Shown piece by piece: positions 25,101 through 48,000 of a stretch of 64,000 bases of DNA (positions are counted from its first letter, which is position 1; each line of letters begins with the position of its first letter). The DNA is taken from contig DASYKK010000017.1 in NCBI GenBank assembly GCA_035995565.1, forward strand, positions 2,286 through 66,285, read 5' to 3'. The notes below the pieces were generated by a model. The model was not told the origin of the DNA. It saw only the letters and a program-made list of their open reading frames with translations, and searched no databases. The position numbers and the translations under genes were made by a program. This DNA is from Candidatus Angelobacter sp. Lineage in GTDB: Bacteria; Acidobacteriota; Terriglobia; Terriglobales; Acidobacteriaceae.

Positions 25101-26089
25101 TGTGCCTCATTAATATTCACCACATCGCCACGGATGGATTTTCCTTCACTGTCTTCATACGAGAGGTTAATGTCATTTACACCGCATACATCAAGGGCAG
25201 GCCCCACTCCTTGCCGGAGCTACCCATTCAGTACTGCGACTATGCTGTTTGGCAACGCGAGTCATTTGCCCGCGGCCTGTTCAATGCAGATATGAAATTC
25301 TGGAGACAGCGCCTCAGCGATCTTGCCTCGGTGCCCGGTCTTCCCCTGGACAAGCCACGGCCACTCGTTGAAAGTCTTAATGGCGCTTATCACCGGACAA
25401 TCGTCAATGCTGAGTTAGTGCGGCGACTGAGTGAACTCAGCCGGTCGCAGAACGGCACTCTATTCATGATCCTGCATGCAATCTTCGCGTTGCTGTTGCA
25501 TGGATACAGTGGTGCAGACGACGTCATCATTGGCGCGCCGGTCGCTAACCGTCATCACCGCGACGTTGAATCTGTCATCGGTTGCTTCACTAACAACCTT
25601 GTTCTCCGGTCCGAGTTCAAGCAGAATCCCTCATTTGTCGACTTCTTGGCGCAAACCATCGACAACGTTCAGCAAGCATTCATTCATCAGAGTGTGCCAT
25701 TCGGTTTGTTGCTTGAGGCGGCCAAACAGCTTAACCCTGAACGAGATCTAAATCAGTTTCCTTTATGTCAGGCGATTTTTACCTTCCAGAACAGCGTAGA
25801 GCGCGAGGCAATCGACCTGCCTGATTTAAAAATTACGCCCCTCGATACCATGGAAATCCTGGACACGCATAACCCGTTCGTCCTGGTGGACTTGGTGCTA
25901 GACGCGGTGCAAACGAGCGGCGGTTTGTCACTCCAGTGGCAGTATGCGACCGACATCTTATCCAAAGGAACGGTTGAATTGCTCGCGGACAGATTCGACG
26001 CCCTGCTGGAAAGTGTTCTCCGTTGGCCAGAAGAACGGGTCAATACCTTGTACTTCACTGCCAGCAACGCTGCACAACAGCTCACATAA
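22196..26089 (+). CDS. NRPS: TubC-type N-terminal docking domain - C - decayed A remnant - T - C
   Basis: Docking-like ILDIAIESGVFLYVEGGGLKYRAPAGNMSPELRQLLKQHRQEIILHL. C1 has PLSYAQQRFWF and HHIASDAWS (22817-22843). The A remnant spans 23780-24325. T has FFAVGGHSL (Ser codon 24467). C2 has HHIATDGFS (25118-25144). The ORF is open from GTG 22187, overlapping the upstream stop. Confidence 0.9.
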   Translation: MTSQQILDIAIESGVFLYVEGGGLKYRAPAGNMSPELRQLLKQHRQEIILHLNKMQVQAVGDRFEPPPIQRRIGSGRVPLSYAQQRFWFIEQLENCGIHMRSAHRLTGSLNVRALEDALNTIVNRHESLRTVFFEENGTPYQFVVPTVKFGLTRTDLCSLSESEQESEIRRHIAEDAQRPFDLARDLMIRVHLLALSPEVHVVILNQHHIASDAWSQWVFRRELVELYLAYCEGRPNLTVPLKLQYADYTVWQQAWLKGEVLERQLAFWKRALKGIPEVHNLPLDHGRTTGTTHSGGSVVCTIDDETLQGIRDFCNRRDATLFMFFHTAMSILLSRYSDDTDIVVGTPVLGRVHPDLEAMIGLFVNTVVLRLRLDGDPSFEELLKQEKQQLLDALNHQHVPFELVVETMKPRRSTSYNPIFQVLFNMQPLDTDGFALPGLKYEALGVAGIGTFDLSITVMESVHSLSIRFSYSSAVFLGATVTRMANNFRALLSSILDSPSRRVRELDMLAPMERNRLVTELNQGRSTPVYIVDSTGNLMPEGGHGELCVPATGLAQYCNDQDPRDVQRQMRSIPNPLASASDEPLWRTGALARWSPTGELELFGALADRTTVGGVRINLARFRGALSTTPWIIRFAVVVREDVSGCEILVAYVAGDKKALAPFEHFVTELRISLASALDGQEVRFALAVVDRLPFFIEGGLQLDLLPIPEDAIKPSELFEGDARTDTELRMERIWRTVLPDSPLSNVDNFFAVGGHSLSMIVLIKRISMEFGVDIPLATFMEAPTIKATSRFVSGAPTSGNATDVRRPMNQAPLEVTESVATRQNSIPPLSLAERSKPLALSFVQRGLLLRMWSAKSESGRTRFNMPDSRQIVGPLCIESLRRTFETIVARHAILRTVYREESGEPVQVILAPTPFSIPFIDLSGLALDVQTASVGKHVRDHALRPFDLASEPSLRVLLLKLSDQRHVCLINIHHIATDGFSFTVFIREVNVIYTAYIKGRPHSLPELPIQYCDYAVWQRESFARGLFNADMKFWRQRLSDLASVPGLPLDKPRPLVESLNGAYHRTIVNAELVRRLSELSRSQNGTLFMILHAIFALLLHGYSGADDVIIGAPVANRHHRDVESVIGCFTNNLVLRSEFKQNPSFVDFLAQTIDNVQQAFIHQSVPFGLLLEAAKQLNPERDLNQFPLCQAIFTFQNSVEREAIDLPDLKITPLDTMEILDTHNPFVLVDLVLDAVQTSGGLSLQWQYATDILSKGTVELLADRFDALLESVLRWPEERVNTLYFTASNAAQQLT
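23780..24325 (+). other. decayed adenylation-domain remnant (C-terminal third only, core motifs degenerate)
   Basis: The C domain runs directly into PVYIVDSTGNLMPEGGHGELCVPATGLAQY (A6-like). Then come WRTGALARW (A7, Asp lost), GALADRTTVGGVRINLARFRGAL (A8 degenerate) and LPFFIEGGLQLDLL (A10, Lys lost). The A1-A5 motifs and binding pocket are absent. Confidence 0.7.
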
Positions 26090-26090
26090 A

Positions 26091-27110
26091 ATGAATGGAA
26101 ATGCAAGAGGGAACGCCGTGTATGGTTTTGAGGCAAATGCCGATTCGGGGCATGATGTGCTGTGGAGGGGGCTCCCACACTCGAATTTTTACAGGCAGAT
26201 GAAGCTTACAGGGTCGACCACACTAGAATTGACGGGCGAAACGGAGCTAGAACGTCGTGCCTGCCGCTTGGACGTGGATCGCCATGCTGCGTTGGGCGCG
26301 TTTATAAACGCTAGTGGGCTGCATTTCACTACAATTATGCTTGGCATCTACCATGTAGTGCTGCAGTGGTATCTCGGAGATGTTGAGAGTATCATCGGCT
26401 GCTGCTTGCTGGAAAACGGCACGCCTCAAGGCGCCGAGGGCGGAATCCCGATAGTCCGATTGCGTCCCAGCTATGTGTACGCCGAGGATGATGATCGCAT
26501 CGAGGATGTGTTGCGAGATATCGAAGAGCGGCGCGCCGGACACCCTGTCGAAGTCGATATAGACACTTGTTCGTCGTGGACTTCCAAACGCGCTCCCACC
26601 TTTTACTATGTGGGTATTGAGGGCAGGGGCTTGAGCCATTCCGATACTGTAAACATCGCGGCCAGCCACTTGCCATTCCGTGTGATCGTCGGAGCTGCAA
26701 CGGAGGTAAATGGAACGGAACTCAGTATATCCATACCGTCCGCCATATCTCATGCGATCCCAATGCAAGACTTCCACCGGCGGCACGATACTGCACTTTC
26801 CTCATTGCTCGCGGGGAATTGTTCGCTGGTTGGTGAACTCAAGGCGCAGTTAGGCGACGCTGCGGAGGTCCCGTATCATCAGATCGAAGAAATGCAACAG
26901 AGAGTGATTACCCTTTGGGCTACGGTGCTCGGCATCCCAAAGGAGAAGGTAGACGCAACCTCGAATTACTACGAGTTGGGGGGAACATCCCTCAATGCGT
27001 TTCGGCTTGTCAATCGCGTGCGTCTGGAGTTGAAGCGTGACCTGAGCATCTGGGACATCGTAGAGAATCCGACCGTGGAACAGTTGTCACTGGCCCTGCT
27101 CAGGGACTAA
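26091..27110 (+). CDS. stand-alone carrier protein (PCP) with ~260-aa N-terminal region of uncertain function
   Basis: ATG lies 1 nt after the upstream TAA. The C-terminal segment is RVITLWATVLGIPKEKVDATSNYYELGGTSLNAFRLVNRV (PCP, GGxS). The N-terminal part (…GLHFTTIMLGIYHVVLQWYLGDVESIIGCC…) weakly resembles the C-terminal half of a condensation domain and has no HHxxxDG. Confidence 0.7.
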   Translation: MNGNARGNAVYGFEANADSGHDVLWRGLPHSNFYRQMKLTGSTTLELTGETELERRACRLDVDRHAALGAFINASGLHFTTIMLGIYHVVLQWYLGDVESIIGCCLLENGTPQGAEGGIPIVRLRPSYVYAEDDDRIEDVLRDIEERRAGHPVEVDIDTCSSWTSKRAPTFYYVGIEGRGLSHSDTVNIAASHLPFRVIVGAATEVNGTELSISIPSAISHAIPMQDFHRRHDTALSSLLAGNCSLVGELKAQLGDAAEVPYHQIEEMQQRVITLWATVLGIPKEKVDATSNYYELGGTSLNAFRLVNRVRLELKRDLSIWDIVENPTVEQLSLALLRD

Positions 27111-27116
27111 GCCGGG

Positions 27117-29201
27117 GTGTGCGACGTGGCTGATTTACAAATACAAGAGACGTCCCGAAGCGAAGTTCTCACCGCTGATGCTTTATTCCGTCGGAATGTC
27201 GCTGTTCGAGGCGAAGCACTCGCAGTTCAAGATGCAGTACAGGCCTGCACTTACCGAGAGTTAAATTCCAGGGCTTGCGCACTGGCTCATGAATTGCGAA
27301 AACGGGGTGTGTGCGCTGGTGACCGGGTGGTTATCTACTCCGAAAGAGGAATGCACGTCGTGATCGCCGTTTTGGCGGTCATGAAAGCTCAGGGCGTTTT
27401 TGTGCCGGTAGGTCTTGATACCCCGGCAGCCCGCTTGGCGTTCATCCTGAGCGATGCCAATTCCAAGTTGCTCCTCGCCGACAGAGCCGGCCGCGAGAGA
27501 TTAGCAGGATGTGATCTACATTTCCAGGCTGTCGTTATCGATGAGGTTGCATCCCGCAGCCTGGACGATCACGCACCTGACGATTGCGGTTCCTTAGATA
27601 CGACGCAAGTTCAGCCGAATGACCTCGCGTATATCATCTACACGTCCGGAACAAGTGGCGAACCAAAGGGTGTCATGATCGAGCACGGCAGTCTCGCGCG
27701 GAGGTATCATGACTGGGACCAGCCGTTTCAGCTCAGTCGTTTACGGCCGCGAATACTGCAGATTGCCAAGTTCGGGTTCGACGTGTTCGTTGGCGATCTC
27801 GTGAAGGCGCTTTGTTCAGGCGGCGTGCTTGTGATCTGTCCAACCGAGGCTGTGGCTGATCCGGTTCAACTCTATCGATGGCTTGTCGATGGGGCAATCG
27901 ACTACGTCGATATTGTTCCTGCCGTTTTGCGACCTCTCGTCGATTACCTGGAGCTGTCGGGACAAAATCTGGCCTGTGTGGGAGTGATCAACTGTGGCGC
28001 TGACCTGTGGACGAAAGAGGAATATCAGAGAAGCTGGCGCGTTACGAAAGCGGTGCGATTATTCAACGGTTATGGAGTAACAGAATGCACCATCGAGAGC
28101 ACGCTGTTTGAGGATGACGGCATGCTGGAAGGCAAGAACAGGCTGCCTATCGGTCGGGCCCTCGACAGTGACCAGATACTCATTTTGAATGAAGACCGTG
28201 AACCTGTGGCCATCGGCACGACCGGTGAAATATGCATTGGGGGTACTTGTGTGGCGCGCGGCTATCTCAACCGGCCTGAGTTGAACCAGAAAGCTTTCTT
28301 TGTGCGAACGGATAGTCAAGGGCAGCACGTCAGGTTTTACCGAACGGGTGATCTGGGTCGAATTGATGCTAACGGCGTGTTGGAGTTCTTGGGCAGGATC
28401 GATTCGCAGGTAAAGATCAACGGCCAGCGAATCGAACTTGAGGAGATCGAGAGAGTGCTTGGGCGCCTGCCAAACGTGCGCCAGGCTGCAGTCTGTTTCG
28501 AGATGAACCAACGTACGTTGACGGCATTCATCAAGGCAACGCATGGAACTACGCTCAATGCTTCCGATGTAACCACGCAGCTGCGGCGTTATCTTCCCGC
28601 ACACATGATCCCGAGCGCGATTGTGTTCGTCCCGGACTTCCCGCTGAACCAGAATGGCAAGATCGACAGAGGCCGACTGGCAAACGATCGTGACCGCTAT
28701 ACAACGCATGCGCCGCCGAATAGGAATCACGAGCTGCATCAAATCCGCAGTGTGACAGAGTTTTACGAGCGCCTCAGCCTCGGGGGCATCGACCTTATCT
28801 CCGTTGTGAGCGAGTTTGTGAAACCGTCCACGAGTTTTGCCTTGATAGTGATCGGCGCGTTTGCCCATGGGACCGCAAGTGCAACTTCTCCCGTCGAGTT
28901 GTTGATCCTCCTGGATGACGCTCGTGCGATGAAGCGACGGAAAAAAGACCTGGCTGGCGCTTGCGTCGAGTACTCCATGGGGCCCGAAGATAGCTACCCG
29001 AGAATTTCTGTTAGTCTCGACGGGCTCAAAATTCTTCTAACTTTCCTAATTGGAAAACCTGACGACGAAAACTTTTCACGAAAAGAGATAGCGAATCTGG
29101 TGACGAGTGACTGGATCGTGCAAGGCCAAGATGCAGTTGAGTCCTGGGTTCGCTTTTACCGGAGGCAGCAAATTGATTCCGGTGACAGGACCGCACCATG
29201 A
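27117..29201 (+). CDS. stand-alone adenylation enzyme fused to a C-terminal degenerate nucleotidyltransferase-like domain
   Basis: A motifs: YRELNSRA, IYTSGTSGEPKGV (27639-27671), NGYGVTEC, GEICIGGTCVARGYLN, YRTGDLGR, GRIDSQVKINGQRIELEEIE, PLNQNGKIDR. It has no T domain. The tail at 28749-29198 is paralogous to the ORF at 32723-33703. Confidence 0.85.
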   Translation: MCDVADLQIQETSRSEVLTADALFRRNVAVRGEALAVQDAVQACTYRELNSRACALAHELRKRGVCAGDRVVIYSERGMHVVIAVLAVMKAQGVFVPVGLDTPAARLAFILSDANSKLLLADRAGRERLAGCDLHFQAVVIDEVASRSLDDHAPDDCGSLDTTQVQPNDLAYIIYTSGTSGEPKGVMIEHGSLARRYHDWDQPFQLSRLRPRILQIAKFGFDVFVGDLVKALCSGGVLVICPTEAVADPVQLYRWLVDGAIDYVDIVPAVLRPLVDYLELSGQNLACVGVINCGADLWTKEEYQRSWRVTKAVRLFNGYGVTECTIESTLFEDDGMLEGKNRLPIGRALDSDQILILNEDREPVAIGTTGEICIGGTCVARGYLNRPELNQKAFFVRTDSQGQHVRFYRTGDLGRIDANGVLEFLGRIDSQVKINGQRIELEEIERVLGRLPNVRQAAVCFEMNQRTLTAFIKATHGTTLNASDVTTQLRRYLPAHMIPSAIVFVPDFPLNQNGKIDRGRLANDRDRYTTHAPPNRNHELHQIRSVTEFYERLSLGGIDLISVVSEFVKPSTSFALIVIGAFAHGTASATSPVELLILLDDARAMKRRKKDLAGACVEYSMGPEDSYPRISVSLDGLKILLTFLIGKPDDENFSRKEIANLVTSDWIVQGQDAVESWVRFYRRQQIDSGDRTAP
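28749..29198 (+). other. NTase-like C-terminal domain with catalytic residues replaced
   Basis: IDLISVVSEFVKPSTSFALIVIGAFAHGTASATSPVELLILLDD aligns with IDLTSLVFEFIKPASEVGVLVTGSIATRIATEVSDLDVLILAPS of the free-standing paralogue. At the catalytic positions GS becomes GA, DLD becomes PVE, and VDL becomes ILL. Confidence 0.65.
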
Positions 29202-30106
29202 CGAGACTCGGCATCTGTCACATCAGTTTCACGCCAGGTGATCAGCCGATTTGGTACCGGGATCTGCCGGATATCGAGGAGCAGATTCGCCTCCTAAACA
29301 TTCCCGATGAGGAAGATCTCTGGGAGTGGGGCTACTGCCGTCGCTCTTCCGGAGAGTATACCGCTCACGTTGCGGGTGGGTTCGGAGACCTAATGACGTA
29401 CCTGAGCGCTGAGAAAATCGAAGTGGATGCCGTGCTGGCCTGCGGTCCCTTTCAGAACAGTGCGGAGTGCTTCAGCGACGAGCTCCGAGCCGGCGTCCTT
29501 CCAGGAATTTCGATTCATCCTGACAAGTTGCACACCGTGGATGATCGAGAATGTATCAATGTTGCCCACGCGCTGGCGGAGGCAAGAGATTTGATCTACT
29601 CGGGTCACAGATACGTGCTGATCCTGGCGGCGGAAAAGCTAGAGCAAGACCGCTGCCGGTTTCGAAAGTACTCCATGGTCAGCGACTTTTGCTTCGCGAT
29701 TATCGTTACTAGCGTGATTGCACGTTGCCCCTGGGAACTGCTACATGTGCATATTGGCGCTGATCTGGATCCGAGTGAAGACACTGGCAAGATCCTGATG
29801 CGGCAGCTCGAGAGGGATTGCGTGGCAACTGTCCTGGCCGTTCATGGTTTGAAACCGCCTGACATTTCCAAATTCTTCTACTTGAACCTCTTTACACCTA
29901 TCGCCGAGATGAAAGCGAAGCACACCGGCTTCGCGTCCTCGCAAATCTATACCGAAGTGACGAAAGCAATGGCGCATTGCAACGGCGCCGACCCATTTAT
30001 CAATTTGCACACATATTCCGCAACTGGCCGCCCCGGTGAGATCTATGTGCTGTGCGCCTCGGCGCGGGCGCATGCAGCAGTTTGCCTTGTGGCTCGCCTG
30101 CATTAG
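29198..30106 (+). CDS. thiolase-fold, KAS III (FabH)-like protein; probable acyltransferase (tentative)
   Basis: ATGA overlap with the upstream gene. By-eye alignment to FabH: HTVDDRECINVAHALAEARDLIYSGHRYVLILAAEKL versus [37 protein letters not shown]. The Cys is retained. MVSDFCFAIIV aligns with IFGDGAGAAVL, and AHCNGADP with RHGNTSAA. The FabH His position appears not to be conserved. Confidence 0.5.
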   Translation: MTRLGICHISFTPGDQPIWYRDLPDIEEQIRLLNIPDEEDLWEWGYCRRSSGEYTAHVAGGFGDLMTYLSAEKIEVDAVLACGPFQNSAECFSDELRAGVLPGISIHPDKLHTVDDRECINVAHALAEARDLIYSGHRYVLILAAEKLEQDRCRFRKYSMVSDFCFAIIVTSVIARCPWELLHVHIGADLDPSEDTGKILMRQLERDCVATVLAVHGLKPPDISKFFYLNLFTPIAEMKAKHTGFASSQIYTEVTKAMAHCNGADPFINLHTYSATGRPGEIYVLCASARAHAAVCLVARLH

Positions 30107-30110
30107 GACC

Positions 30111-31244
30111 ATGCTAATCGATGAGCTAAAAATTGCTTCGAAGCGGATGCCTGAACTGGTCAAGGCGCTCAGCACTCGGGACATGATGGACCTTGAGAAC
30201 AGTGGCAGCGAATCCGTTACCGGCTTGTTGCGCGCGCATGGTGCGCCTGAGTTCCTTGTTCCCCGGGACCTTGGAGGCGGTGGTGGTTCCTTGTTGGAGA
30301 TTACACAAATTATGCGCGTCGTTGGATCCAGGTGTCCGTCGCTGTCCATAATGATGACAATGCACCACCATACAGTGGCAGCGATCGCACGTGGAATGAG
30401 CTCACTCTCTGGTGGGGCAGCATGCCTGAAGCGTGTCGCACGGGAGAGAGCGCTGGTGGCATCTGCCTTTGCTGAGGGCCGTCCGGGAGCCGATACTTTG
30501 GACTCAACTGTGCGCTGTACCCAGCTGGACGGTGGGGCTGGTTTCAGGGTGGTTGGATCCAAAAAGCCAAGTTCAATGAGCCATCATGCAAATTTCGCGT
30601 GTGTCGGCGTGTTGGTGGACATTGGCGGGCAAACAGGTCGCGGAATCGCCCTCGTGGACCGAGCGCTCGACGGGACCAATGTCAGTGATTTTTGGACATC
30701 CGAGATACTGGCATCTGCGGATTGCCATTGTCTCAAGTTCGAGGGTGTTCTTGTGCCGCACGGCTTTGTCCTCGTGCCTTTCGCCGATGGAAAGGTTGCC
30801 TGCAGGGAGGGCCTTGTAGTTGCCCATGCTGAGATCGTGATGTCGTGCCTCTTTCAAGTGCTTATAAGCGCCAGCTACTTAGGAATGGCGACTCGGCTTT
30901 GTGAGTCCGTGTTGAAGAAGCGCGGCGGCACGTCGGCACAACGTGTTGAGATCCTGAGTCGGTTGGAATCCGCGGCCGCGGCCATTTATCACCTCGCCGC
31001 GTCTGTTGAGAAAAGCGATATTTCCGCATACCTCCTGGGCAAATCAATGCTTGTGGCATGCAACACTGCTGCACAGATCGAGTACGCAGTGGCGCTGAGC
31101 GTCAAGGCTCTGGGTGGTAGCGGTTACTTAAGCAGTAAAGAAGCTCAATATCTGGTCCTCGCAAGCCACTGTCTCGATTTCCACCCGCCATCACGCCAGG
31201 TACGGGAAGAGATTATAGATGGCTGCTATACAGAATTAATTTAA
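30111..31244 (+). CDS. acyl-CoA/acyl-carrier-protein dehydrogenase-like flavoprotein
   Basis: ATG lies 4 nt after the upstream TAG. GLLRAHGAPEFLVPRDLGGGGGSLLEITQIMRVVGSRCPS, GFRVVGSKKPSS and ...ALGGSGYLSSKEAQYLVLASHCLDFHPP follow the ACAD domain order. The ~377-aa size matches aminoacyl-PCP dehydrogenases. Confidence 0.7.
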   Translation: MLIDELKIASKRMPELVKALSTRDMMDLENSGSESVTGLLRAHGAPEFLVPRDLGGGGGSLLEITQIMRVVGSRCPSLSIMMTMHHHTVAAIARGMSSLSGGAACLKRVARERALVASAFAEGRPGADTLDSTVRCTQLDGGAGFRVVGSKKPSSMSHHANFACVGVLVDIGGQTGRGIALVDRALDGTNVSDFWTSEILASADCHCLKFEGVLVPHGFVLVPFADGKVACREGLVVAHAEIVMSCLFQVLISASYLGMATRLCESVLKKRGGTSAQRVEILSRLESAAAAIYHLAASVEKSDISAYLLGKSMLVACNTAAQIEYAVALSVKALGGSGYLSSKEAQYLVLASHCLDFHPPSRQVREEIIDGCYTELI

Positions 31245-31246
31245 GG

Positions 31247-32263
31247 ATGTTTCTTAGTATCTCTATGAGTCTGCATCGAAACCCAACTCCGATGTCGTTC
31301 TTCCATGGCATACCGGTATTTCGTCTTCATTCCGCTCTCGTGGACAATACATACGCCCTTACAATCCAGGATTACGATGGTGATAGTTCCACTATCAACA
31401 ATGCAGTCTCGCAAGGTCGACTGGTTCTGATTCGCGCACTGCCATTTGATCGCGCTAGGGCCCTGTTTTGCGATCTCGTAGATCGTCATGGCTTAAGAGA
31501 TTCGTATGATATTCAGATGCAATATGTCGTGGGTTTGATGGCGGCCAGAGAACCCGTAGATCAATTCGCAGTGACTGTTAACAAACGTGGCCCCTATGAA
31601 ATAATACAGCCCCATTGCGAGGGCGACAGCAGCTCGCCCCTAGAGATTTTTGGTCTCCATTGTGTCCAAAATGCCGAATCAGGTGGTGAGAATATTTTAA
31701 GCCTGATAAGCCAGACCGCGGATCATTCCGGCCTCTGTGCGAAGGAGAAAGCCATTGTTAATACCGGCATGTCTTCGGCAGAACTGAATCGATTACGGAG
31801 AAACCACCTCGATGCAAAAACCGTAATCCCTGAGGTCCCTTGTGGCTGCAGCGTTTTGGCCCAGGTAGAACATGGGAGCATCATTGTACGCGGTGTCCCG
31901 CTAGTAAGATCCCGATCCATTGTCTCAGGTGAGGACCTGGTCAGCTATTGGGATAATGTGACCGTGCACGATCATGCTTTCCACAGATTCCAATACGAGA
32001 TACTGAAGCACCTGGGTATCTTTCATTGTAACGGGGATATAAGCGGCTATGAGGCCTACATGCATGTGGAAGACGATTCGCCTTGGGCTCCTGCGGACAC
32101 GTGCAGCGGCGATGTTGAACAAACATCGCGCTTATTTCTATGTCATATCATTTACAAAATGGAACCTGGGGACCTTCTAGTGTTCAACAATCGAGCCTGG
32201 ACGCACTCTTCAAACAACTGGCCGCCGGATCAAGTTCGAACACTGCATGCGATGTATGCATAG
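31247..32263 (+). CDS. TauD/TfdA (clavaminate-synthase-like) Fe(II)/2-oxoglutarate dioxygenase
   Basis: HxE facial-triad candidate IIQPHCEGDSS, distal His in LLVFNNRAWTHSSNNW, and Arg in QVRTLHAMY. The start could be a downstream ATG (31265 or 31292). Confidence 0.6.
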   Translation: MFLSISMSLHRNPTPMSFFHGIPVFRLHSALVDNTYALTIQDYDGDSSTINNAVSQGRLVLIRALPFDRARALFCDLVDRHGLRDSYDIQMQYVVGLMAAREPVDQFAVTVNKRGPYEIIQPHCEGDSSSPLEIFGLHCVQNAESGGENILSLISQTADHSGLCAKEKAIVNTGMSSAELNRLRRNHLDAKTVIPEVPCGCSVLAQVEHGSIIVRGVPLVRSRSIVSGEDLVSYWDNVTVHDHAFHRFQYEILKHLGIFHCNGDISGYEAYMHVEDDSPWAPADTCSGDVEQTSRLFLCHIIYKMEPGDLLVFNNRAWTHSSNNWPPDQVRTLHAMYA

Positions 32264-35707: not shown

Positions 35708-38700
35708 ATGCTGGAACTACTTAATCGCTACTCTCACGGCTTAGCCGCGATCCCGATCATACATGCGCTCAAGCAGCGCGGATGTCTTGCGTGGATAGAG
35801 GCAGCGGGCCCGTTTTGCTCGGAGCAACTGGAGATCGAGTTCTCAGGTAATCGAGGATACGTCGAGGTGGCGCTTCGGATGTTGACCTGCCTTGGTTGGC
35901 TTCGTTGCCCGTCGGCTGGGCGATACGAAGCCACAGCGGAACTCGCGCGCTATCGCGAGGTACCAGACAGAATCCTGGAGCTTTATCGTTTTCCCTTCCA
36001 CCAATATGTAGAGCGGTCCAGCGGGGAGTCTCTCGCTTTTTGGCTCAAGCTGTCAGCACGGCGGTGGAATATTGATCACGCAGTTCTTCCGGATTACCTG
36101 GACGGCCTGTTGATCATTCCATTGTTGTTGGAACTTAAGGCACAGCGAAGATTGGATGTCATCGTGGAGACGGGTGCGCTGGATGCCATTGCGACGTTAT
36201 GCCTACGCCTTGATCAGCCAGTTCGGCGCGAGGTTGAACGGCTATTCGTGAGTAGAAAATGGGCTTCCGCGCGCTCTCTGCGACTCAATCGCGTCGGCCG
36301 GTTCATCATCGACAGAATCCATATCACCGCCGCCTTGGCATCCTACAGACCTATGTTTTCATGCGTCGAAGATCTCCTGTTCGGGGATCATGCTCGAGTA
36401 TTCGCCCCGGATTTGGCCAACCGCGAAACACACGTCGACCGTACGTTGAATGTGCGCGGGAGTGGTTTTCAGCATGAGAAGTACTTCTCGGCGCTCTGTG
36501 ATCTGGTGGTCCAGGTATTCGATCATGGGGCCTATGCCTCGCAACCGAAATACATCGTGGATATGGGTTGCGGCGACGGCTCAATGCTACGCAGAATATA
36601 CGAGACTGTGCGCGACCGCACCCGTCGGGGACAGGTGCTTGAACAACACCCGCTGATTCTGATTGCGGTCGATTTCAACGACGAAGCTCTCTTCGCTGCC
36701 TCCCAAACGCTCGATGGTATTGATCACATCACTTTCAAGGGTGACATCGGAGATCCGGCCGGTCTTATGCAAAGCCTGCGAGAGCGCGGGATCGACGACG
36801 CAGGCCGCGTACTGCACGTAAGGGCGTTTATGGACCACAATCGTCGGTATGTGGTTCCTGAAACCCACGATGCGGCCCAGCGCCGCCCACGATTCGGCGG
36901 CAGTTGCATCTACGTCGATGTCAATGGATCTTCCATCCCGGCTGGCGACCTGATACAGAGCACGATCGAGCATTTGCAGCGGTGGGCAAAAATCCTTAAC
37001 GAGCATGGGATGCTAGCCCTAGAAGTGCATTGCCTCTCGGCCCAAGCTACCGCAACATACCTGGACGAAAGCGAAAGCTTTCATTTCGACACCTATCACT
37101 CTCTATCCCATCAATATCCACTTGAGGCGGAGACATTTCTTGCTTGCGCTGCTGAAGCCGGGCTGTTCTGCCGCAAAGGACATTGCGTCGGTTTTCCGGC
37201 GAAGCTGGAGTTTACACGCATCACTCTTAGTCATTTTGAAAAACGGCCGTACACAGTTAGACATGCCTGTGCTGCGGATCTCATGGCGTTGACTGACCTA
37301 GACTGTGCTTCTCGTGCGTCACCACCGGTTCCCGCACAAGACCCAGTTCGTTGGTTAGAGACTCAGTTGCGCGAGTTTTCCGAAGGGCAGTTTGTGCTTG
37401 TAATGGAGGGGCAAATCGTCGCCGCGATTTGCTGCCTCAGGGCCAACTCTCCCGGGTCCGTCTCTGTAGGGGCAACATTTGGAGATCAAAGCTATGTAAC
37501 GGATCTGCTGCAGTTCGTCGAGCAGTACTGGGCAGTCAAGAAGATCTCGGTCGCCGGGATTGAAGATTGTCTGGCAGAAGTCAGGGCCCTCCCCGCCAGG
37601 CATGCCGTCGCTCCTGCCGTTGCACGGGACGTAACGACGCTGGTAGCCAAATATCCATTCGCGGCAGAGAACGACCCTCGTGACGGGGAACGCGAGCTGG
37701 GTATCTTTGCTCTCCGGTGGGTCGTTGCGCACCTCCAGAGAATGGGTGCCCTGCGCCAACCCGAAGAAGTGTATCAACTTAGAGACCTGAAGCAGTTATT
37801 GAGGATAGCGCCCAAATACGATCGCTACTTTGAAGCTCTCCTGCGCAGATTCGACCGAGAAGGCCTGGTGAGGCTGAAAGATCTACGCGTGGAGACCACA
37901 ACCCTCGTCCGCGAATATGCACTGCAATCTGTGCCGGACCAGGTGGCGGATTTCAAGGAAAATTTTCAGCAGCGTCATCCAGCCTGCGCCAGCCATCTAA
38001 ACCTCACCGCATGCTGTCTTGCCAGATATGAGGAGATCCTCACCGGTGCGATCGATGTCACCAACGTTCTGTTCGAAGACGCCAATATGGATGTTTTCAA
38101 GAACGTATTTTGCGGCGATGCCGTTTCGGATTATTTCAACCGGATTGTCGCCGACGCTGTGAACTGCACGATTCTCCGGCTGCAACCATTACCTACGAAG
38201 GTCCGTATTCTCGAAATCGGGGCCGGTACTGGCGGTGCGACCATCGGGATCCTGGAAGTGCTGGAGTCATTCGCGGGACTCGTTGAATTCTGCTTCAGCG
38301 ATGTTTCATTGGCTTTCACACGGCATGCAAAGGATCGGTTCGCCGACCGGTACCCATGGATTGATTACCGGTCCCTGGATATCGAGCAGGATTTGTCACG
38401 GCAGGGATTCGGGGATCACACTTTCGATATCATCGTCGCTTCGAATGTGTTACATGACACGCATGACATCGAAGTTACACTTCAGCAAACACGCAGGTTG
38501 CTGAGGGCAGGCGGGCTACTCATAATGAATGAGTATACGTCTGTAAAAGATTGCCTATCCTTTAGTGGCGCCTTGCTGCACGGATGGTGGCTCTTTAGGG
38601 ATCCCCAACGACGGCTGAGCGACAGCTGCCTGCTTAGCGTGCCCCAGTGGCGCAGCGCCCTGGAACATACCGGCTTCGAGCTACTTCAAGCGTTCGCTCT

Positions 38701-39075
38701 GCCGACGCAGAGCCCTAACTCAGAGTGCAGCCAGAGCGTTATGCTTTGCGAAGCCACAGAACGGCCGAATATCCAACATGTGCAGAACGATGTGCAGAAC
38801 GACGGGAGCAATGTGGCCAAGACTGTTATCGAAGGTGCTCGCAGCACTAGGAAGCATGGAATTGTAGGAGACTTTGTCGAGCAAGACATTCTGGTGATCC
38901 TTGGCCCTGAGCGTGCCAAAGGTTATCTGACACACCGCCCTGTAATGGAACTGGGGCTGGATTCCATCGAGTTGGTTGAGTTGCGACAGCTCTTGGAAAA
39001 ACGGTTCTCCGTAAAGCTGTCTCCGTCTTTTCTGTTCGAATATGAGACACACGAAAAGATGGTCGAGGCTTTGGT
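35708..39075 (+). other. loading module MT1 - truncated GNAT - MT2 - ACP (AprA-like order)
   Basis: See the motifs above. The GNAT-like segment (~aa 515-620) shows the N-terminal strands (YTVRHACAADLMALTDLD, FVLVMEGQIVAAICC). I cannot find a Q/RxxGxG/A acyl-CoA-binding motif in it. Confidence 0.6.
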
Positions 39076-42000
39076 GCCATTGGTGTCCGAGGAGAAGCTC
39101 CGGGATCGGTCGGCGCTGAAGCTCTTGGATCAGGCTGACCATGAATCGGATTCCGGAGAGAACAATCAAGAAGCCGCGTCGGTTCGCCCTCGCTTAGAGA
39201 AGGAGCCGATTGCGATCATCGGGGTCGCATGCCGCTTCCCAGGCGGCGCAACGTCACCCGATAAATTGTGGACACTTTTGGAGCGTGGCGCGCACGGAAT
39301 CGTTCCCATGCCTCCAAACCGATGGGAATGGCCGGCCTTTGTGGATGTTAACGAAAAGCATAAAGGCATTGATCGCGGCGGGTTCTTGGCGCGAATAGAT
39401 GAGTTTGATGCATCCTTCTTCCGCACCTCTCCAAGGGAAGCCGAATTGATGGACCCGCAGCAGCGGCTATTGCTTGAACTGAGCTGGGAGGCGCTGGAGG
39501 ATGCAGGGCATCAGCCAGCGGAGTTATCGGGCCGTGAAGTCGGCGTTTTTGTTGGCGCATGCCACTTTGATTATCGCGACGTTCTCGTCGCGAGTTCCGC
39601 GGTAGCCGACGCTTATATCGGATCCGGCAGCGCGCAGTCGATGCTCGCCAATCGTCTTTCGTATTTCTATGATTTAAAGGGTCCCAGCCTATGCATTGAC
39701 ACCGCCTGCTCAAGCTCTCTCGTTGCTTTGCACGAGGCGGTGTGCGCGATAAGACGTGGAGACTGCGAACAGGCGATTGTAGGCGGAGTCAACCTACTCT
39801 GCAGCCCGACCAACAGCGTTGCGTATTACTTGGGAGGCATGTTGTCACCCACTGGCGAATGTCGGGCCTTTGATGCGGCTGCCAATGGCTTCGTACGGGG
39901 AGAAGGTGGGGCCGTGTTGTTGCTGAAACCTCTGTACGCCGCGTTGGCAGACCGCGATGCGATATACGGCTTGATAAAGGGAGCTGCCGTGAACCATGGC
40001 GGCCAGGCAGCCTCGCTCACAGCCCCGAAACCGGATGCGCAGGCTGCCGTAATCGAAGCCGCCTGGTTGGATGCTGGTGTCCCAGCCGAGTCAGTGGGTT
40101 ATATCGAGACCCACGGTACTGGCACGCGCCTCGGCGATCCCGTCGAGATCAGCGGCTTGACTGAAGCGTTTCGTCGGTTGTACAACGCGCAAGGCTCGAG
40201 TTGGCCGGTAATGCCGCGCTGCGCAGTTGGATCGGTGAAGACCAACCTCGGACATCTTGAAGGTGCGGCGGGGCTTGCGGGTCTGATTAAAGTGCTGATG
40301 TCCATGCGACGTGGTCTGCTTCTCGCTACTGTTAATTTCGAACGCCTGAATCCCGAAATCGACTTGAAGGCCAGTCCGCTTTTTATCGTCGAGCGCAACC
40401 AGGTCTGGCATCCTTACTGTGACGCGCACGGCAATGAGCTGCCACGTCGAGCCGGTGTGAGCTCCTTCGGCTTTGGAGGAGCCAATGCGCATATTGTCGT
40501 CGAGGAGTACCGCGGTATTGCCCAGGAGTTCAGCGCTACCGATGCTGGACCATGGCTGATTGTTTTATCGGCGCGGAGTCAAGCGCAACTGGTCGCGCAG
40601 GCGGGCAGACTGGCAGATTTTATGGAGCGGGCCAACCCGAGCCTCCGAGAGGTGGCATACACCTTGCAGGTAGGACGAACGGCTATGCGGGAGCGTTTGG
40701 CGTTCATCGTAAAGAGCAACAAAGCGCTCATCTTCGCGCTGCGTAGCTACGTCACAGGCGAGCCGACCACCCTCGAGCATTTCCATTCAGGCACCGTGGA
40801 AGACCGCCTGGATCACGCACTCGCGGACACAGCGAAACAGGCGATCAATACATATATCTCTAGCAAAGACCTGCTGAATCTCTCCTCACTCTGGGTCAAG
40901 GGAGTGGAGATCGATTGGGAGCGTCTGTACGGGGAATCGAAACCCCGGCGCCTGAGCCTGCCAACTTATCCTTTTGCGCGGGAGCGTTATTGGCCTGACG
41001 CGCCTGAAGAGACGCAGGTGGTCGGTGGCGTGGCACGGCTGCATGCAGTGGTTCACCAGAACACGTCGGATCTTGAAGAGCAGCGGTACAGCACAACGTT
41101 TACCGGTCAGGAGTTTTTCCTGGGGGATCACCGAATCGCGGGGCAGCGGTTGCTGCCGGCGGTGGTGTATCTGGAGATGGTGCGCGAGGCCGTCACTCGG
41201 GCGAGGCAGAAGTCGTGGGAAAGAGAGGGCGAACGCGGGGCCGGCACGTTGAGGCTGATGGATGTGACCTGGTTACGCCCGCTGATGGTTCGAGAGGCCC
41301 CTGTCGAAGTGCATATTGGCCTGTATCCGGAGCGAGACGGAATCGCATTTGAGATTTACAGCGGGTCCGTGCGAGGTGAGGGAGGAGAAGTCGTCTACGC
41401 GAAGGGTGTTGCGGTTATGGGGGCAGAGGCTGCGGCTCCGCGATTGGATGTGGGGGCAATCAAGGCGCGATGTCAGGCGGGAAGCTATGAGGCAGCGAGT
41501 TGTTACGCTGTATTGGATGAGCAGGGAATCGTGTACGGAAAGAGTCATCGGGGCATTGAGGCTCTGTATGTAGGCTTGAACGAAGCGGTGGCGAAGTTGA
41601 GGCTGCCTTCGTCAGTATGGGCGAGTCGTGGTGATTTTGTGCTGCACCCCAGCTTGATGGATTCGTCGTTGCAGGCGACCATCGGATTCAGTCTGACCGG
41701 GGGAGAGGGAGCGGGGGCGAGGAAACGAGCGCTGCCCTTTGCGCTAAGGACTGCGGAGATTCATGGCGCTTGCACAGAGAAGATGTGGGCGGTAGTGCGG
41801 CGGGAAGAGGCAGGAGCAGACCGGAAGGGAATCAGCCGTTACGACATCGATTTGTGCGACGAGGAAGGGTGGGTGTGTGTGCGGCTGAAAGGTCTGGCCA
41901 CGCGGGTGTCCGGCGGGAGCGAGGAATCGGCTTCACGTGCGGCGGGCGAGGTGTCGAGTGCTATTCGGCCGGTCGTTGTCGATGGTCTGCAAGCGGACGT

Positions 42001-45000
42001 GCAAGCGGAGCTGATGCGGGCGATCTCCAAACTGATGAAGTTGCAGCCGGACAAGATTCGAGCTGACGCAGAATTTAGCGGACTTGGCCTCGATTCAATC
42101 GCGCTGATCGGCTTAGCCGACCAGCTCAGCGCCGAGTACGGTATTGCGGTGAAGCCCTATGAGTTCTTCGAGAGTCCGACGCTGGAGGGATTTTCCGGGT
42201 ATCTGGTCCGGACCTGGCCCGATGTAATGGCGGCCCATTTTGCGGTACAGGCCGGCGGCCCGCCCGTGGTGGAAGCTCCGGAGGGGAAGGCGCTGGAAAA
42301 AAGAAGAGTGCGGCGTTCGCGGTTTGCTTTGGTGGGTGCGACAGGAGGTGGTGAGGCCGCGGAGGGGATTGCCATCATCGGCATGAGTGGTCGTTTTCCA
42401 ATGGCGAAAGATGTTGACGAGCTCTGGGAAAACCTGTTGAGTGGCCGGGACTGCATCGGCGAGATTCCGCCGGAGAGATGGGACTGGCGAGCGGTTTATG
42501 GAGACCCTGGGGAAGAGAATAAGACCGATATTAAGTGGGGGGGCTTCATCGCGGGGATGGACGAGTTCGACCCGCAGTTTTTCAACATCTCCACGCGCGA
42601 AGCGGAGCTGATGGATCCGCAGCAGCGGTTGCTGATGATTCATATATGGAAGGCGATTGAGGATGCAGGCTATGCGCCGTCGAAGTTGTGGGGCAGCAAC
42701 ACTGGGATTTTTGTTGGTACCGGGCTTTCCGACTATGCACGGCTGATGGCGCAAGCGAAGGTTGGCATCGAGGGCTATACGGCAATGGGGACGGTAGCCT
42801 CGGTGGGGCCGAACCGGATGAGTTACTTTCTCAACCTGCATGGTCCCAGTGAGCCGATTGAGACAACGTGTTCAAGCTCACTGGTGGCAATCCATCGCGC
42901 GGTGTCGGCGATGCGAAGCGGCCACTGCGAGATGGCGATCGTGGGGGGAGTGAACACGATCCTGACGCCGGACCTGCACATCAGCTGTACCAAGGCCGGG
43001 ATGCTGAGCGGGAGCGGACGCTGCAGGACGTTTTCCGACCGAGCGGATGGTTACGTGCGCAGCGAAGGCGTGGGCATTCTGGTGCTGAAGAGGCTGGCAG
43101 CGGCCGAGCAGGCGGGCGACCACATCTATGGTGTGATTTTGGGGAGCGCGGAAAACCACGGAGGGCGCGCGAACTCATTTACGTCGCCCAATCCACAGGC
43201 CCAGGCAGAGTTGTTGCGGAGAGCCTACACGCAGGCTGGGGTGGACCCGGCGAGCGTGAGCTACATCGAAGCCCATGGGACCGGCACACAGCTGGGCGAT
43301 CCCGTGGAAGTGGATGGACTGAAGACGGCGTTCCGGGATTTATATCAGAGCTGGGGAAGCGAGGTACAGGCGGGGCACTGCGGCCTGGGCTCGGTGAAAT
43401 CCAACATAGGGCATTTGGAATTGGCGGCGGGTGTGGCGGGAGTGATTAAGGTCCTGTTGCAGATGAAGCACAGGATTCTGGTGCCGGGCCTGCATTGCGA
43501 GACGATCAATCCGTATATACAACTCGAAGGCAGTCCTTTCTACATCGTCCGTGAGAGGACAGAGTGGAAGACTGGGCAGAACGGGGATAATGTCCACGAT
43601 CTGCCGCGCCGAGCCGGAGTGAGTTCGTTCGGCTTCGGCGGGGTGAACGCACATGTAGTGCTGGAGGAGTATGTTCCCCGTATCGAGATTCCTCGCCGGA
43701 CCGTGACGCGGGAACGCCCTGCCCTGGTGGTACTGTCGGCACGCGATGAGGTGCGGCTGCACGAGCAGGCGGAAGGTTTACAGGCCGCATTAGGACAACA
43801 GCGCTTCGATGCGGCCGACCTGATCGACATTGCGTATACCCTGCAGGTGGGTCGTAATGCGATGGAGGAACGCCTAGGGTTGCTTGTGAACTCGATCAGC
43901 GATCTGGAGCAGAAGCTGCAGGCCTTCCTTAATAATAAGGATGAGGGAAAACGGGAGGGGGTGTATCGGGGCCAGGGGGGAAAGAATCAGGATGTGCTAG
44001 GCATTCTGAGGGCAGACAGCGAATTCCATACTGTGATTGACCGATGGATCGAGCAGCATCAATCCGAGAAACTGCTGGACGTGTGGGTCAAGGGAGTGGA
44101 GATCGATTGGGAGCGTCTGTACGGGGAATCGAAACCCCGCCGCCTGAGCCTGCCAACTTATCCTTTTGCGCGCAAGCGATGCTGGCTACCGAAAAGCAAG
44201 GCAACTGGTATGCAGATCGTGCATCCGTTACTGAACCAGACAGAGGCGGGCGATTCAGGTTTTTGCTTCAGTACCGTGCTGACCGGCGCGGAGGATTTCC
44301 TTACTGATCATGTCATTCAGGGCAGGAAAGTGCTACCGGCCGTGGTCTACCTCGAAATCGCACGCGCAGCCGCCGAGCATGTCGCCTTGAGTTCGATCAG
44401 CCCAGCGGCGGGGCAACAGAGCGCCATCGCGCTGCGCAACGTTGTCTGGCTGCGGCCGTTCATTGTGGGGGCAAAACCTGCGCAGCTTCATCTTCGGTTG
44501 ACACCGAATGACACTGGCCTGGGATTTGAGATATCGAGCAACCTCGAAGGAACGGATCGCGGCGGGGTTGTTTATGCGCGTGGGCATGCCAGGGCGAGCG
44601 CGGCAGTCCCAGCGCCGGTTTTGGACATAGCTGGCTTGCACGCACAATGTGATCGGTTACACTACTCCGGAAACGATTGCTATCAGGCTCTCAGGTCTCT
44701 GGGCTTCCATTCCGGGCCGGCCCATCGGTGTATCTCCGAAATCCATGTCGGGAACGAGGAACTCCTGGCGAAGATCCAACTGCGGGCTTCGCCGGTGCAC
44801 GTATACGATGGATTCGTCCTGCACCCCGGTGTGGCCGATTCAGCGATTCAGGCGATTATCGGGTTCATGCTTGCAGACCGGCGGAGCGATGCGGAGGCAA
44901 TAAAACCAGCGTTGCCCGCAGAGCTTGACAGTGTGGAGATATTCGCGCCGTGTGCTTTGGCGATGTGGGCCCTGATTCGCAGGGACAAGGATAAATTCGA

Positions 45001-48000
45001 TATCGACTTATGCGATGAGGACGGTCGTGTCAGTGTCCGTTTCCGCGGCTGGGCCGCACAGCCGTTAGAAGGCGAACTGCTAGGTTTCTTGCCCGTTGAG
45101 GCTCCGGTGACCGAGGAAGTGGTTTTGACGCAAGTCTGGGAGCCGGTTTCGATTATGCGGCTTGCACCTAGGCAAGCCCTGGCCACCGGAGGCATGGTGA
45201 TGATCGGTGGCACGTGCGACCAGCGATTAGCGATTCAGCGGCTTTTTCCTGACGCCAAATACGTAGAGCTGGCAACCGGAGAAACCGTCGAATCTATCTG
45301 CGGGAAGATCGTGGATCTGGGCGAGATTGGGCATGTAGTGTGGCTGGTGCCTCAACACCTTCCAGACACGCTGGCAGCCGACTCTATGATTGCCGAGCAG
45401 AGTCAAGGAGTGCTTTCAGGGTTCCGTTTGATCAAGGCTATGCTTGCCGCCGGCTACGGTGCCAGGATTCTGACCTGGACGGTGCTGACGGTCGGGATTG
45501 AGGCCGTTCACGCGACTGAGCTGGCTAACCCTACCCACGCTTCCGTCCACGGATTGATGGGCTCTGCGGCGAACGAACACCCCAGCTGGACCGTGCGCTT
45601 GATAGACCTGCCCGATTCCAACGACTGGCCATGGGAGGATCTATTCGCCGTGCAAGGGTTCCCCCACGGAAACGCATTGTTCTATCGGGAAGGCCGCTGG
45701 TATCGGCAGCAACTCGTGCCCTACCGACTCATCAACGATGCCCCGATGATGGCCTGTGAAGGGGAGGTTTACGTCATCCTTGGGGGCCACGGTGGAATCG
45801 GATCTGCATGGTCCGAGGCCCTCCTGCGCCGGTCGCGCGTACAACTTGTCTGGATAGGCCGGCGGCCGATGGACAACGTTCTGCAGGCCCGACTTGACAG
45901 GTTGGCCTCGCTTGGTCCGGCACCACTTTACATTTCAGCGGATGCAACAGACCTGCAGCAACTCGAGAGCGCGCGCACCATGATCCTTCAGAAGTTTGGC
46001 CGGGTTGATGGGCTGGTTCACGCTGCGATGGTGCTGCACGACCGGAGCCTCGCGAATATGACGGAAGACGCGTTCAGCGCCGCGCTCCGGCCAAAAATCG
46101 ATGGCACCGTTCGGCTGGCTCAGGTATTCGGGCGGGATGCTCTCCGCTTCGTCCTGTTCTTTTCTTCGTGCAATGCTTTCATCAAGTCAGCAGGACAGAG
46201 TAACTACGTAGCGGGATGCACGTTCCTGGACAGCTTCGCGCGCCGCATGTCTCGTGAGTGGCCGTGCAAGGTTCGTATTATCAACTGGGGGTATTGGGGA
46301 AGCATAGGGGCTGTGGCCTCGGAGCGCTATCAAGCTCTTATGGCTGGAAGGGGATTCGGCTCGATTGAGTTGCCGGAAGCAACTAGGATCCTGGACGAAC
46401 TGCTGTGTGGCCCTGAGGTGCAAGTGGCATATCTAAAAGTGACACAGCAGACCGCACTGAGCGCTTTCGACATCCTTTCCGGCGAATGGGTCACCGGCTT
46501 TCGTGAAACGCAGCCCTCGTGCCTGACCGCTATCGAGCGTGTGGGAAAAGCAAATGATGCGAGCGAATGGTCACCTTCACACGATTGGTGCGAGGCAGAA
46601 CAGGAGATCGACGCCCTCCTCATCAATTTGTTGCGGTCCCAGTTGCAATCCGCTGGGATCTTCGGTGAGAAAGGCGCCTCCTGGGAGGAGGCGCAGTCGA
46701 GCGGGAAAGTCCAGACACGCTTCCGCCTATGGTTCGAACACAGCATTCGCCTGGTGGCGACCAACGGCTATCCACCCGGATGCATACCGCAACGCGATGG
46801 TTTGGACCTGGTTCCCGCAGATAGCGAAGATGCCTGGGGGACATGGGAGAGCAAGAAGGGTCAATGGCTTAAGGATCCCGAGTTGGAGGCCGGCGTAAAG
46901 GTGGTCGAATCTGTGCTACACGCATTGCCGGACATACTAGCCGGACGGCGTGACGCCACCGATATTTTTGCGGATGTTTTTGCTTCCGGGTCGACTCCCC
47001 AGATCGCAAGGATCATGCGGAGAGGTCCGGTCATCCGTTTCTGCAATGAGACGATAGCTCAGGCAGTGGTCCAGTATATTTTGGAGCGCTGTTGCCGGGA
47101 TTCCCACTGCCAGCTGAAAATTCTCGAGATCGGCGCACGAACGCGCAGCACAACCGAGGGCATACTCGCAGCAATTGAACCGCACGCTAGTTGCCTGAAA
47201 GAATACGCCTGTACTGATACTTCAATGCAGGTCCTTTCCGCCGCACGGCGCTGGGCTGGATCTGAGCGCGCCTACCTCAACTACCAGCTGTTCGACGTGG
47301 AGCGATCGCCTGAAGCACAAGGCATGGCAATCGACAGCTACGATTTGGTGATCGCGAGCAATGTTCTGCATGCCACCAGGGACATCCACACAACCTTGCG
47401 CAATGCCAAGGCTTTGTTGAAGACCAATGGGCTTCTCATTCTCCACGACGTAACCGTCAACACCACGTTCGACCATCTCACTGTTGGTCTTCTGGACGGA
47501 TGGTGGCAGTTTTCGGACACCGAACCCCGCATCACTGGCGGTCCTGCGTTGCTGCCAGCGGGCTGGCGTGCTGTCTTGCAACTGGAAGGGTTCGGCCCCG
47601 TGCTCTTCCCGGCCGGGAAAGCGCACGACTACGGGCATCAGGTGATCGTGGCCGAGAGCGACGGTGTTGTCCGACAGCGCCTGGCGCGTTCAGCACTTTT
47701 ACAGGACCAGGTGGGCGCAGATCGAGAACCCGGAAATATTGTCGCGCCGCGTGTTGCAGACGACGGATTGCTTACCAGGGTCGACGAAGTCATGAGCAGG
47801 CCCCGGAACGCCGCGATCACCTACCTGCTCTCCACGGTTCGGATGCGGACGGCTGAGACTCTGGGCGTTGACATCGCTACGCTGGACGCACAATCGCGGC
47901 CATTCGCCGACATGCTGCTGGGCGAATTGGGAATGGATTCTCTATCTTCGAACAACCTGCGTAACACCCTGCGCTTGGAACTCGGCGTGGATATACCGCT

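Follow-up and report, generated by a model that had tools for sequence, protein, structure and literature searches.

An AprA-type loading module with a predicted tert-butyl starter in an acyltransferase-less polyketide synthase of Candidatus Angelobacter

AprA, the loading protein of the apratoxin A pathway of Moorena bouillonii (PDB 6B39/6B3A/6B3B/7UCH, 6D6Y), builds a tert-butyl (pivaloyl) starter and consists of a methyltransferase (MT1), a pseudoGNAT, a second methyltransferase (MT2) and an acyl carrier protein (ACP); to our knowledge, it is the only loader of its type with published biochemistry. The loaders SxtA, GphF and CurA are related to it through a homologous MT1 family and homologous GNAT cores, but they contain a competent GNAT decarboxylase and no MT2, and the N-terminal region of CurA is not known to be an active methyltransferase. 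BryX, encoded in the bryostatin locus of the gammaproteobacterial symbiont Candidatus Endobugula sertula, has the domain order of AprA, although we know of no direct demonstration of its loading function. A 2026 paper regards the order ('MT1-PsiGNAT-MT2-ACP') as a recognised hallmark of pivaloyl starters (PMC13564409). Here we analyzed a 64,000-nucleotide stretch of Candidatus Angelobacter sp. (contig DASYKK010000017.1, positions 2,286 to 66,285; hereafter the window), in which the initial annotation had proposed the same domain order and a branched starter unit for the first part of a polyketide synthase (PKS). By analogy to AprA, residues 1-1135 of this PKS probably form a chain-initiation module of the AprA/BryX type, with a tert-butyl (pivaloyl) group as the starter.

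The PKS is encoded by one uninterrupted open reading frame (ORF) of 4139 amino acids on the plus strand (35708-48127), and the segment originally annotated (35708-39075) corresponds to its residues 1-1122. The start codon is right, since the N-terminus MLELLNRYSHG coincides with those of all homologues. Every motif quoted in the initial annotation is present, namely VDMGCGDG (aa 284-291), ILEIGAGTGG (834-843), VLHDTHD (914-920), IMNEY (939-943) and LGLDSIEL (1082-1089). Pfam assigned AprA_N to residues 1-66 (E 1e-20), WH_AprA to 132-227 (1e-19), Methyltransf_36 ('AprA MT-like') to 240-507 (1e-97), Methyltransf_12 to 835-938 and PP-binding to 1077-1122; generic class-I methyltransferase models cover 822-994, the families PF23526, PF23589 and PF23525 all score far over their cut-offs, and no Pfam family was assigned to residues 508 to ~820. 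NCBIfam contained no model specific to the loading module and returned generic methyltransferase matches only, all sub-threshold.

Comparison with the PDB by phmmer matched the methyltransferase-decarboxylase didomain of SxtA (7UCI) to residues 1-576 (E 2e-143), the MT1-GNAT fragment of AprA (6B39) to residues 2-622 (E 6e-135) and the GNAT-MT2 fragment of AprA (6D6Y) to residues 509-1012, nearly without gaps (E 6e-86), followed by the C-methyltransferases (C-MTs) of DisA/DszA (6CCA, E 4e-62) and CurJ (5THY, E 1e-46). These scores are far beyond chance. An AlphaFold model of residues 1-1122, computed from 12 aligned full-length homologues, had a mean predicted local distance difference test score (pLDDT) of 82.9. 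When this model was compared with the PDB by Foldseek, the SxtA methyltransferase ranked first with a template modelling (TM) score of 0.91 on the target, and four AprA MT1-GNAT entries ranked next (TM 0.84-0.87); DszA and CurJ C-MTs reached TM 0.84-0.89, and the AprA GNAT-MT2 fragment TM 0.71, with the high root-mean-square deviation expected from inter-domain orientation. Across the full model and residues 500-668 modelled alone, all four loader types that the initial annotation had named for comparison (AprA, GphF, CurA and SxtA) were matched. The domain order MT1-pseudoGNAT-MT2-ACP is thus confirmed by Pfam, by the PDB searches, by the models and by alignment with some 60 homologues. What we observe directly is the identity and fold of each domain, the catalytic loss of the GNAT and the family residues retained by the two methyltransferases; the residue-level statements below rest on alignments plus two secondary literature sources.

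The segment between the methyltransferases (aa 508-660; 37229-37687) is a truncated GNAT fold. We aligned it together with 12 full-architecture homologues against 15 MT-GNAT-ACP homologues. The 15 functional GNATs share 'YSQRI', a strand 'QLLxLNxLP' that is followed by motif A 'QxxGLGD', the sequence 'VVGVTRC', which we take from the CurA work to be the site of the catalytic Thr, and the segment 'LDPxLRFHExxGA...YRPED...GVLIEYD', which carries the catalytic His. The query protein retains the first strands; motif A is absent, and the corresponding loop reads TFGDQSYV. As noted in the initial annotation, a Q/RxxGxG/A motif could not be found, and this holds for the whole of residues 508-660. In place of VGVTRC it has AGIEDC, with Glu619 instead of the Thr, and the entire His-bearing C-terminal part of the GNAT is missing, the helical lid of MT2 following immediately in its place. 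These losses were also found in the AprA-like protein P0012 and in the other full-architecture proteins. Residues 500-668 modelled alone (pLDDT 76.6) formed a beta-alpha-alpha-beta-beta-beta-alpha arrangement with a short strand and helices, which represents the N-terminal half of a GNAT only. The best Foldseek matches of this model were the AprA pseudoGNAT, the SxtA decarboxylase, the CurA GNAT and the GphF GNAT (6MFC), with dozens of ordinary GNATs behind them; against the CurA GNAT (2REF/2REE) the TM score was 0.40 on a 200-residue target, of which ~120 residues were covered. The region for which a GNAT fold had been proposed (aa ~515-640) does therefore model as a truncated GNAT core. Judged by alignment and model, it is a pseudo-domain without the catalytic apparatus, and because a competent GNAT (motif A, Thr/Ser, His and full beta-sheet) is absent, the module is not of the GNAT-decarboxylase type of CurA, GphF and SxtA.

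MT1 (aa 1-507; 35708-37228) comprises the AprA_N region (35708-35905), a winged helix (36101-36388) and a catalytic core (36425-37228). Based on its Pfam and PDB matches and its family columns, it belongs to the AprA/SxtA/GphF family and would be a metal-dependent C-methyltransferase of malonyl-ACP. We defined 87 columns that are at least 95% conserved among 61 family members, and 83 of these are retained in the query protein, including the S-adenosylmethionine (SAM) motif I, His377, Glu439, His441, Glu456, Asp461 and Gln469; within SAM motif I (VDMGCGDG; 36557-36580), Asp285, Gly287, Gly289 and Gly291 are invariant in the family alignment. In SgvM, which is related in fold, the metal is bound by two His residues ~52 residues apart, H244 and H296 (PMC10502145), and we take His377 and His441 as the presumptive equivalents of these ligands. 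SxtA methylates once, and an active-site Ile-to-Thr change that mimics AprA permits a second methylation (PMC10784701). In our alignment the SxtA residue concerned, Ile204, corresponds to Thr202 in AprA and to Ala209 in the query protein (36332-36334), the candidate steric gate for the second methylation. The gate residue is Thr in 16, Ala in seven, Val in two and Ser in two of 27 AprA-type loaders and never Ile, whereas it is Ile in four and Val in one of five SxtA-type loaders. With its non-Ile gate, the MT1 active site appears to have room for two methyl groups. In addition, Phe458/Gln459 of SxtA are replaced by a Tyr-His pair both in AprA (Tyr455-His456) and in the query protein (Tyr463-His464; 37094-37099); the PDB entry 7UCL is the SxtA variant F458H.

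Around the presumptive ligand His377, the stretch 36821-36847 (aa 372-380) reads RAFMDHNRR in place of the near-invariant RSFLDHDRP. A distant subfamily of ~870-1040 aa (P0072-P0096), which contains AprA_N, winged-helix, Methyltransf_36 and second methyltransferase domains and is devoid of a carrier-protein domain, has the RAFMDHNRR-type variant as its standard form.

MT2 (aa 661-1018; 37688-38761) has the PKS C-MT fold, a helical lid followed by a class-I core, according to Pfam, phmmer against the PDB and Foldseek. All 40 columns that are at least 95% conserved in 27 AprA-type MT2s are retained, including the SAM motif ILEIGAGTGG (38207-38236), His916 (38453-38455) and Glu942 (38531-38533). 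As the initial annotation had required of both methyltransferases, SAM-binding motifs are thus present in MT1 and MT2 on proper alignment, along with the residues invariant in their families. His916 and Glu942, both invariant in the family alignment, align with the His-Glu dyad of CurJ in the PDB phmmer alignment, and from the CurJ C-MT work we assume that they have the same role. When the AprA-type MT2s were compared with five canonical C-MTs (CurJ, DisA, the module-2 C-MT of this same PKS and two from related loci), six positions separated the two groups, and the query MT2 had the AprA-type residue at each: F749, F753, F797, F801, G954 and C974. Canonical C-MTs have Tyr at the Phe801 position in four of the five cases and Pro at the C974 position. 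Because all six residues are of the AprA type, MT2 is an orthologue of AprA MT2 and not a displaced C-MT from an extension module. A linker predicted to be disordered (aa 1019-1049) precedes the loading ACP (aa ~1050-1135; 38855-39112), which was identified by Pfam and in the model and carries the phosphopantetheine site Ser1086 (38963-38965) within LGLDSIEL.

The ketosynthase (KS) that follows, KS1 (aa ~1160-1590; 39185-40477), would be the acceptor of the starter, and its Cys-His-His residues are intact (DTACSSS, ETHGTGT and NLGHLE). In a quick, unbootstrapped neighbour-joining tree of 79 KS domains, its clade consisted of 13 KS1s, each located downstream of an AprA-type loader, and all 19 KS1s following such loaders fell within one clade of 25. 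This clustering is consistent with a shared unusual starter.

The chemistry and product that we propose are predicted from the biochemistry of AprA. A trans-acting acyltransferase (AT) would load malonyl onto Ser1086 of the loading ACP; MT1, dependent on a metal and SAM, would methylate C2 of malonyl-ACP twice to give dimethylmalonyl-ACP; and MT2 would couple decarboxylation with the third methyl transfer, yielding pivaloyl-ACP. The truncated GNAT would have no catalytic role and serve as a scaffold between MT1 and MT2, and KS1 would then pass the pivaloyl unit into an assembly line of AT-less PKS and nonribosomal peptide synthetase (NRPS) modules.

Several points weigh against a pivaloyl product. 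MT1 deviates from its family at Ser373Ala, Leu375Met and Asp378Asn, which convert RSFLDHDR into RAFMDHNR (aa 372-379; 36821-36844), and also at Leu471Pro; with His377 as a presumptive ligand, Asn378 would adjoin a metal ligand. The AprA-type and SxtA-type groups are not fully separated at the gate, where Ala and Val show a slight overlap. AprA MT2 reportedly accepts methylmalonyl-ACP too, and the product would therefore depend on the number of methyl groups that MT1 adds. Finally, the module contains no AT, and we found no free-standing AT gene in the window, unannotated ORFs included. As a homology-based prediction, the branched starter of the initial annotation is nevertheless supported, with pivaloyl the most likely product and isobutyryl, which the annotation had also listed, the main alternative. 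For an isobutyryl starter, MT1 would methylate once or perform its second step slowly, and MT2 would carry out the decarboxylative methylation of methylmalonyl-ACP that the AprA enzyme is said to tolerate. The gate Ala in place of the Thr of AprA, and a variant metal-site motif that could alter MT1 activity, would fit such a route. However, Ala is smaller than Thr and should leave more room for a second methyl group, not less; it is the gate residue of seven of the 27 AprA-type loaders, the closest homologues among them; and the known isobutyryl-forming loaders, of the GphF type, combine a methyltransferase with a functional GNAT instead of having the order MT1-pseudoGNAT-MT2. We consider an isobutyryl starter unlikely on balance.

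The altered motif also raises the question as to whether MT1 is active at all. A partly degenerate module, in which changes in its most conserved motif have inactivated MT1, would deliver a less methylated starter or need an extra enzyme, and three of the four altered columns do fall in a single eight-residue motif beside the presumptive His ligand. Yet the other 83 columns, the SAM motif and both His377 and His441 are retained, and the ORF is unbroken across 12.4 kb. About 27 of ~170 relatives naturally carry the Asn variant; 'R[AS]FIDHNRR' is the norm throughout the distant subfamily, and RSFLDHNR is found in several other loaders. Since the Asn form is standard in the one and occurs in the others, RAFMDHNR is probably a tolerated natural variant, and we dropped a dead MT1 as the leading reading. 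Moreover, without a functional GNAT, MT2 would be the only possible decarboxylase, and a dead MT1 would leave the module little purpose; we regard degeneration as very improbable. It is also improbable that RAFMDHNR and the very reduced pseudoGNAT reflect an altered MT1 chemistry, for example in metal preference or methyl count, so that the starter is not simply pivaloyl; failing that, the product would be the first tert-butyl polyketide-peptide of the Acidobacteriota. As part of such a reading, the loader might be a member of a so far uncharacterised family of acidobacterial AT-less PKS/NRPS lines. Lastly, MT2 could work as an ordinary alpha-C-methyltransferase whose substrate is the beta-ketoacyl chain made by the first extension module, with the starter being made otherwise. 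It does share the fold of extension-module C-MTs and is 30-33% identical to those of CurJ and DszA, but it sits upstream of the loading ACP and outside any extension module, its six clade-specific residues are common to all 27 AprA-type MT2s and absent from canonical C-MTs, including the C-MT of its own module 2, and its best PDB match, AprA MT2, scores well ahead of the canonical enzymes. Such a role for MT2 is hardly conceivable.

The AprA-type loader with a predicted pivaloyl starter shares with AprA, in an end-to-end alignment, the truncated GNAT of similar length, the Tyr-His pair of MT1, a small gate residue, and the dyad and clade-specific residues of MT2. The two proteins differ in that their identity is only 36-40%, and in that AprA is a stand-alone protein of 1138 aa followed by cis-AT modules, whereas the query loader is fused to AT-less KS modules; AprA has a Thr gate and RSFLDHDR, compared with Ala and RAFMDHNR here, and its host is a cyanobacterium. 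In this fusion the query resembles BryX (L024), likewise non-cyanobacterial, where the loader is N-terminal on a multimodular AT-less PKS; identities to BryX are 42% for MT1, 42% for MT2 and 53% for KS1, but BryX has another set of downstream modules and a longer pseudoGNAT region. The closest relatives are PKSs of the trans-AT type from Acidobacteriota (L001, L006, L007, L020, L028 and P0348), whose loaders share 52-63% identity with that of the query. P0348 aligns collinearly over the entire PKS of 4.1 thousand residues, at 60% identity over 4171 columns, and L001 shares the pattern KS-DH-ACP-KS-DH (DH, dehydratase). All six of these relatives keep RSFLDHDR, in contrast to the RAFMDHNR of the query.

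We examined the distribution of the architecture with a module profile run against one genome per GTDB species, which gave 80 loci, and with tblastn of the separate domains, by which the order MT1 then MT2 was established. MT1 is directly followed by MT2 in 30 of the 80 loci, 24 of them non-cyanobacterial and six cyanobacterial, the latter including AprA of M. bouillonii. The non-cyanobacterial loci are distributed over metagenome-assembled genomes of Acidobacteriota (10 loci, the closest relatives, at 52-63% identity), Verrucomicrobia (one), Xanthomonadales-like taxa (six: Tahibacter, twice, Rhodanobacteraceae, Luteibacter sp. CQ10, Lysobacteraceae and Lysobacter), Aliikangiella marina (one), Flavobacteriales (one), Ca. 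Thiodiazotropha (one), Ca. Endobugula sertula with BryX (one), Gynuella (two) and Alteromonadaceae (one). The best locus of this species-representative scan was 59% identical. An exhaustive phmmer search of 1.84 billion cluster representatives yielded ~22 clusters (50% identity) that match residues 1 to ~1120 N-terminally in one stretch, with P0348 the best of them. In all non-cyanobacterial proteins examined except that of Aliikangiella (L018), where no KS was detected, AT-less KS modules are fused to the loader, and cis-AT domains downstream of the loader were found in cyanobacteria only. The initial annotation had held that this domain order would be notable outside cyanobacteria. That argument fails because the same architecture is known in BryX, the nearest AprA homologue in Table 1 of the 2011 apratoxin cluster paper (PMC3075265), and in the 24 non-cyanobacterial loci. 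Our literature search on BryX and pivalate and on acidobacterial trans-AT loaders found nothing useful. Two loci from Planctomycetes (L075 and L079, proteins of ~790 aa) contain an MT1 and, ~1.3 kb further on, a weak (29%) partial MT2-like match; they may represent a third type of arrangement (MT1-GNAT-MT?) that matches neither AprA nor GphF.

Beyond the loader, Pfam identified KS, a RhiE-like linker, DH, ACP, KS, DH, ketoreductase (KR), C-MT and ACP, so that the whole protein reads MT1-pseudoGNAT-MT2-ACP / KS-DH-ACP / KS-DH-KR-cMT-ACP. No Acyl_transf_1 domain was detected by Pfam anywhere in its 4139 residues, which makes the extension modules AT-less, as expected of a trans-AT PKS, and RhiE-like linkers flank the KS domains. 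The first extension module (39185-42200; aa ~1160-2170) is KS-DH-ACP without a KR; its DH-like domain could be an isomerase, a pyran synthase or one portion of a split module. The KS-DH-ACP pattern occurs twice in L001, the closest acidobacterial relative. A 103-nt direct repeat, 94% identical between its copies (40892-40994 and 44084-44186), forms the ends of both KS-to-DH linkers (protein ...VKGVEIDWERLYGESKPRRLSLPTYPFAR...) and suggests a module duplication or gene conversion within the PKS gene. The region from the first DH through ACP to the second KS (40001-44000) has a GC skew of 0.19-0.22, compared with mostly <0.1 elsewhere in the window, and a G+C content of up to ~0.60; the window as a whole has a G+C content of ~55%.

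The gene cluster begins after a PolA-like gene on the minus strand (14972-17026). Its first gene (17536-18084) encodes an UpxY/LoaP-family NusG paralogue, a sub-threshold assignment (90.9 bits against a cut-off of 100), and is preceded by a 510-bp intergenic region of 43% G+C. Next are genes for a type II thioesterase, transporters and a peroxiredoxin, and then an NRPS with a docking domain followed by condensation (C), peptidyl carrier protein (PCP) and C domains (dock-C-PCP-C). The cassette at 25944-32263 encodes a 388-aa protein with a terminal PCP, a free-standing adenylation (A) domain, and weak KASIII-like, weak acyl-CoA-dehydrogenase-like and TauD-like ORFs, and probably supplies a modified building block (amino acid or acyl unit). 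An ABC exporter separates it from the PKS, which is followed by a dock-C-A-PCP-TE protein (TE, thioesterase; 48171-52364) and a dock-C-A(MT)-PCP-KS-AT-ACP protein (52361-60070). The latter contains the only AT domain in the window (58541-59470, plus strand), from which the AT-less carrier proteins might receive malonyl. After it come HupE/UreJ and GMC oxidoreductase genes and, from 62905, a further NRPS ORF with a C domain (HHxxxD) that runs off the end of the window at 64000; the cluster is therefore incomplete, and a trans-AT may lie beyond.

Upstream of the cluster, an acyl-CoA dehydrogenase (2824-4623) is 84-88% identical to proteins from Candidatus Angelobacter, Terriglobales, Acidobacteriia and Acidoferrales. 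Together with the acidobacterial relatives of the loader and the G+C content of ~55%, this points to an uncultured acidobacterium as the most likely origin of the DNA; a cyanobacterial origin is certainly excluded. The PolA-like gene gave a more ambiguous taxonomic signal. Its 684-aa product is a DNA polymerase of family A in which a 3'-5' exonuclease domain is present but the 5'-nuclease domain is missing; among named organisms, its relatives are Chloroflexia, which reach no more than ~50% identity, compared with the 84-88% identity of neighbouring metabolic genes to Acidobacteriota, and a 100%-identical fragment of the gene is present on contig Ga0372939_0000787 of the JGI metagenome 3300035673.

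The loader is a divergent member of a known loading-module type, and the starter that it makes is predicted only. It is an apparently intact copy of a known module and not a new kind of enzyme, and it does not change what is known of the mechanism or occurrence of such modules. Few natural products contain a tert-butyl group, which is an attractive feature in medicinal chemistry. For enzyme engineering, the module adds a sequence well diverged from AprA. An AprA-type loader in an acidobacterium also provides a genome-mining lead, as the predicted starter would give a structural handle, a 9H singlet and three SAM-derived methyl groups, for finding the cryptic PKS/NRPS product of this cluster.

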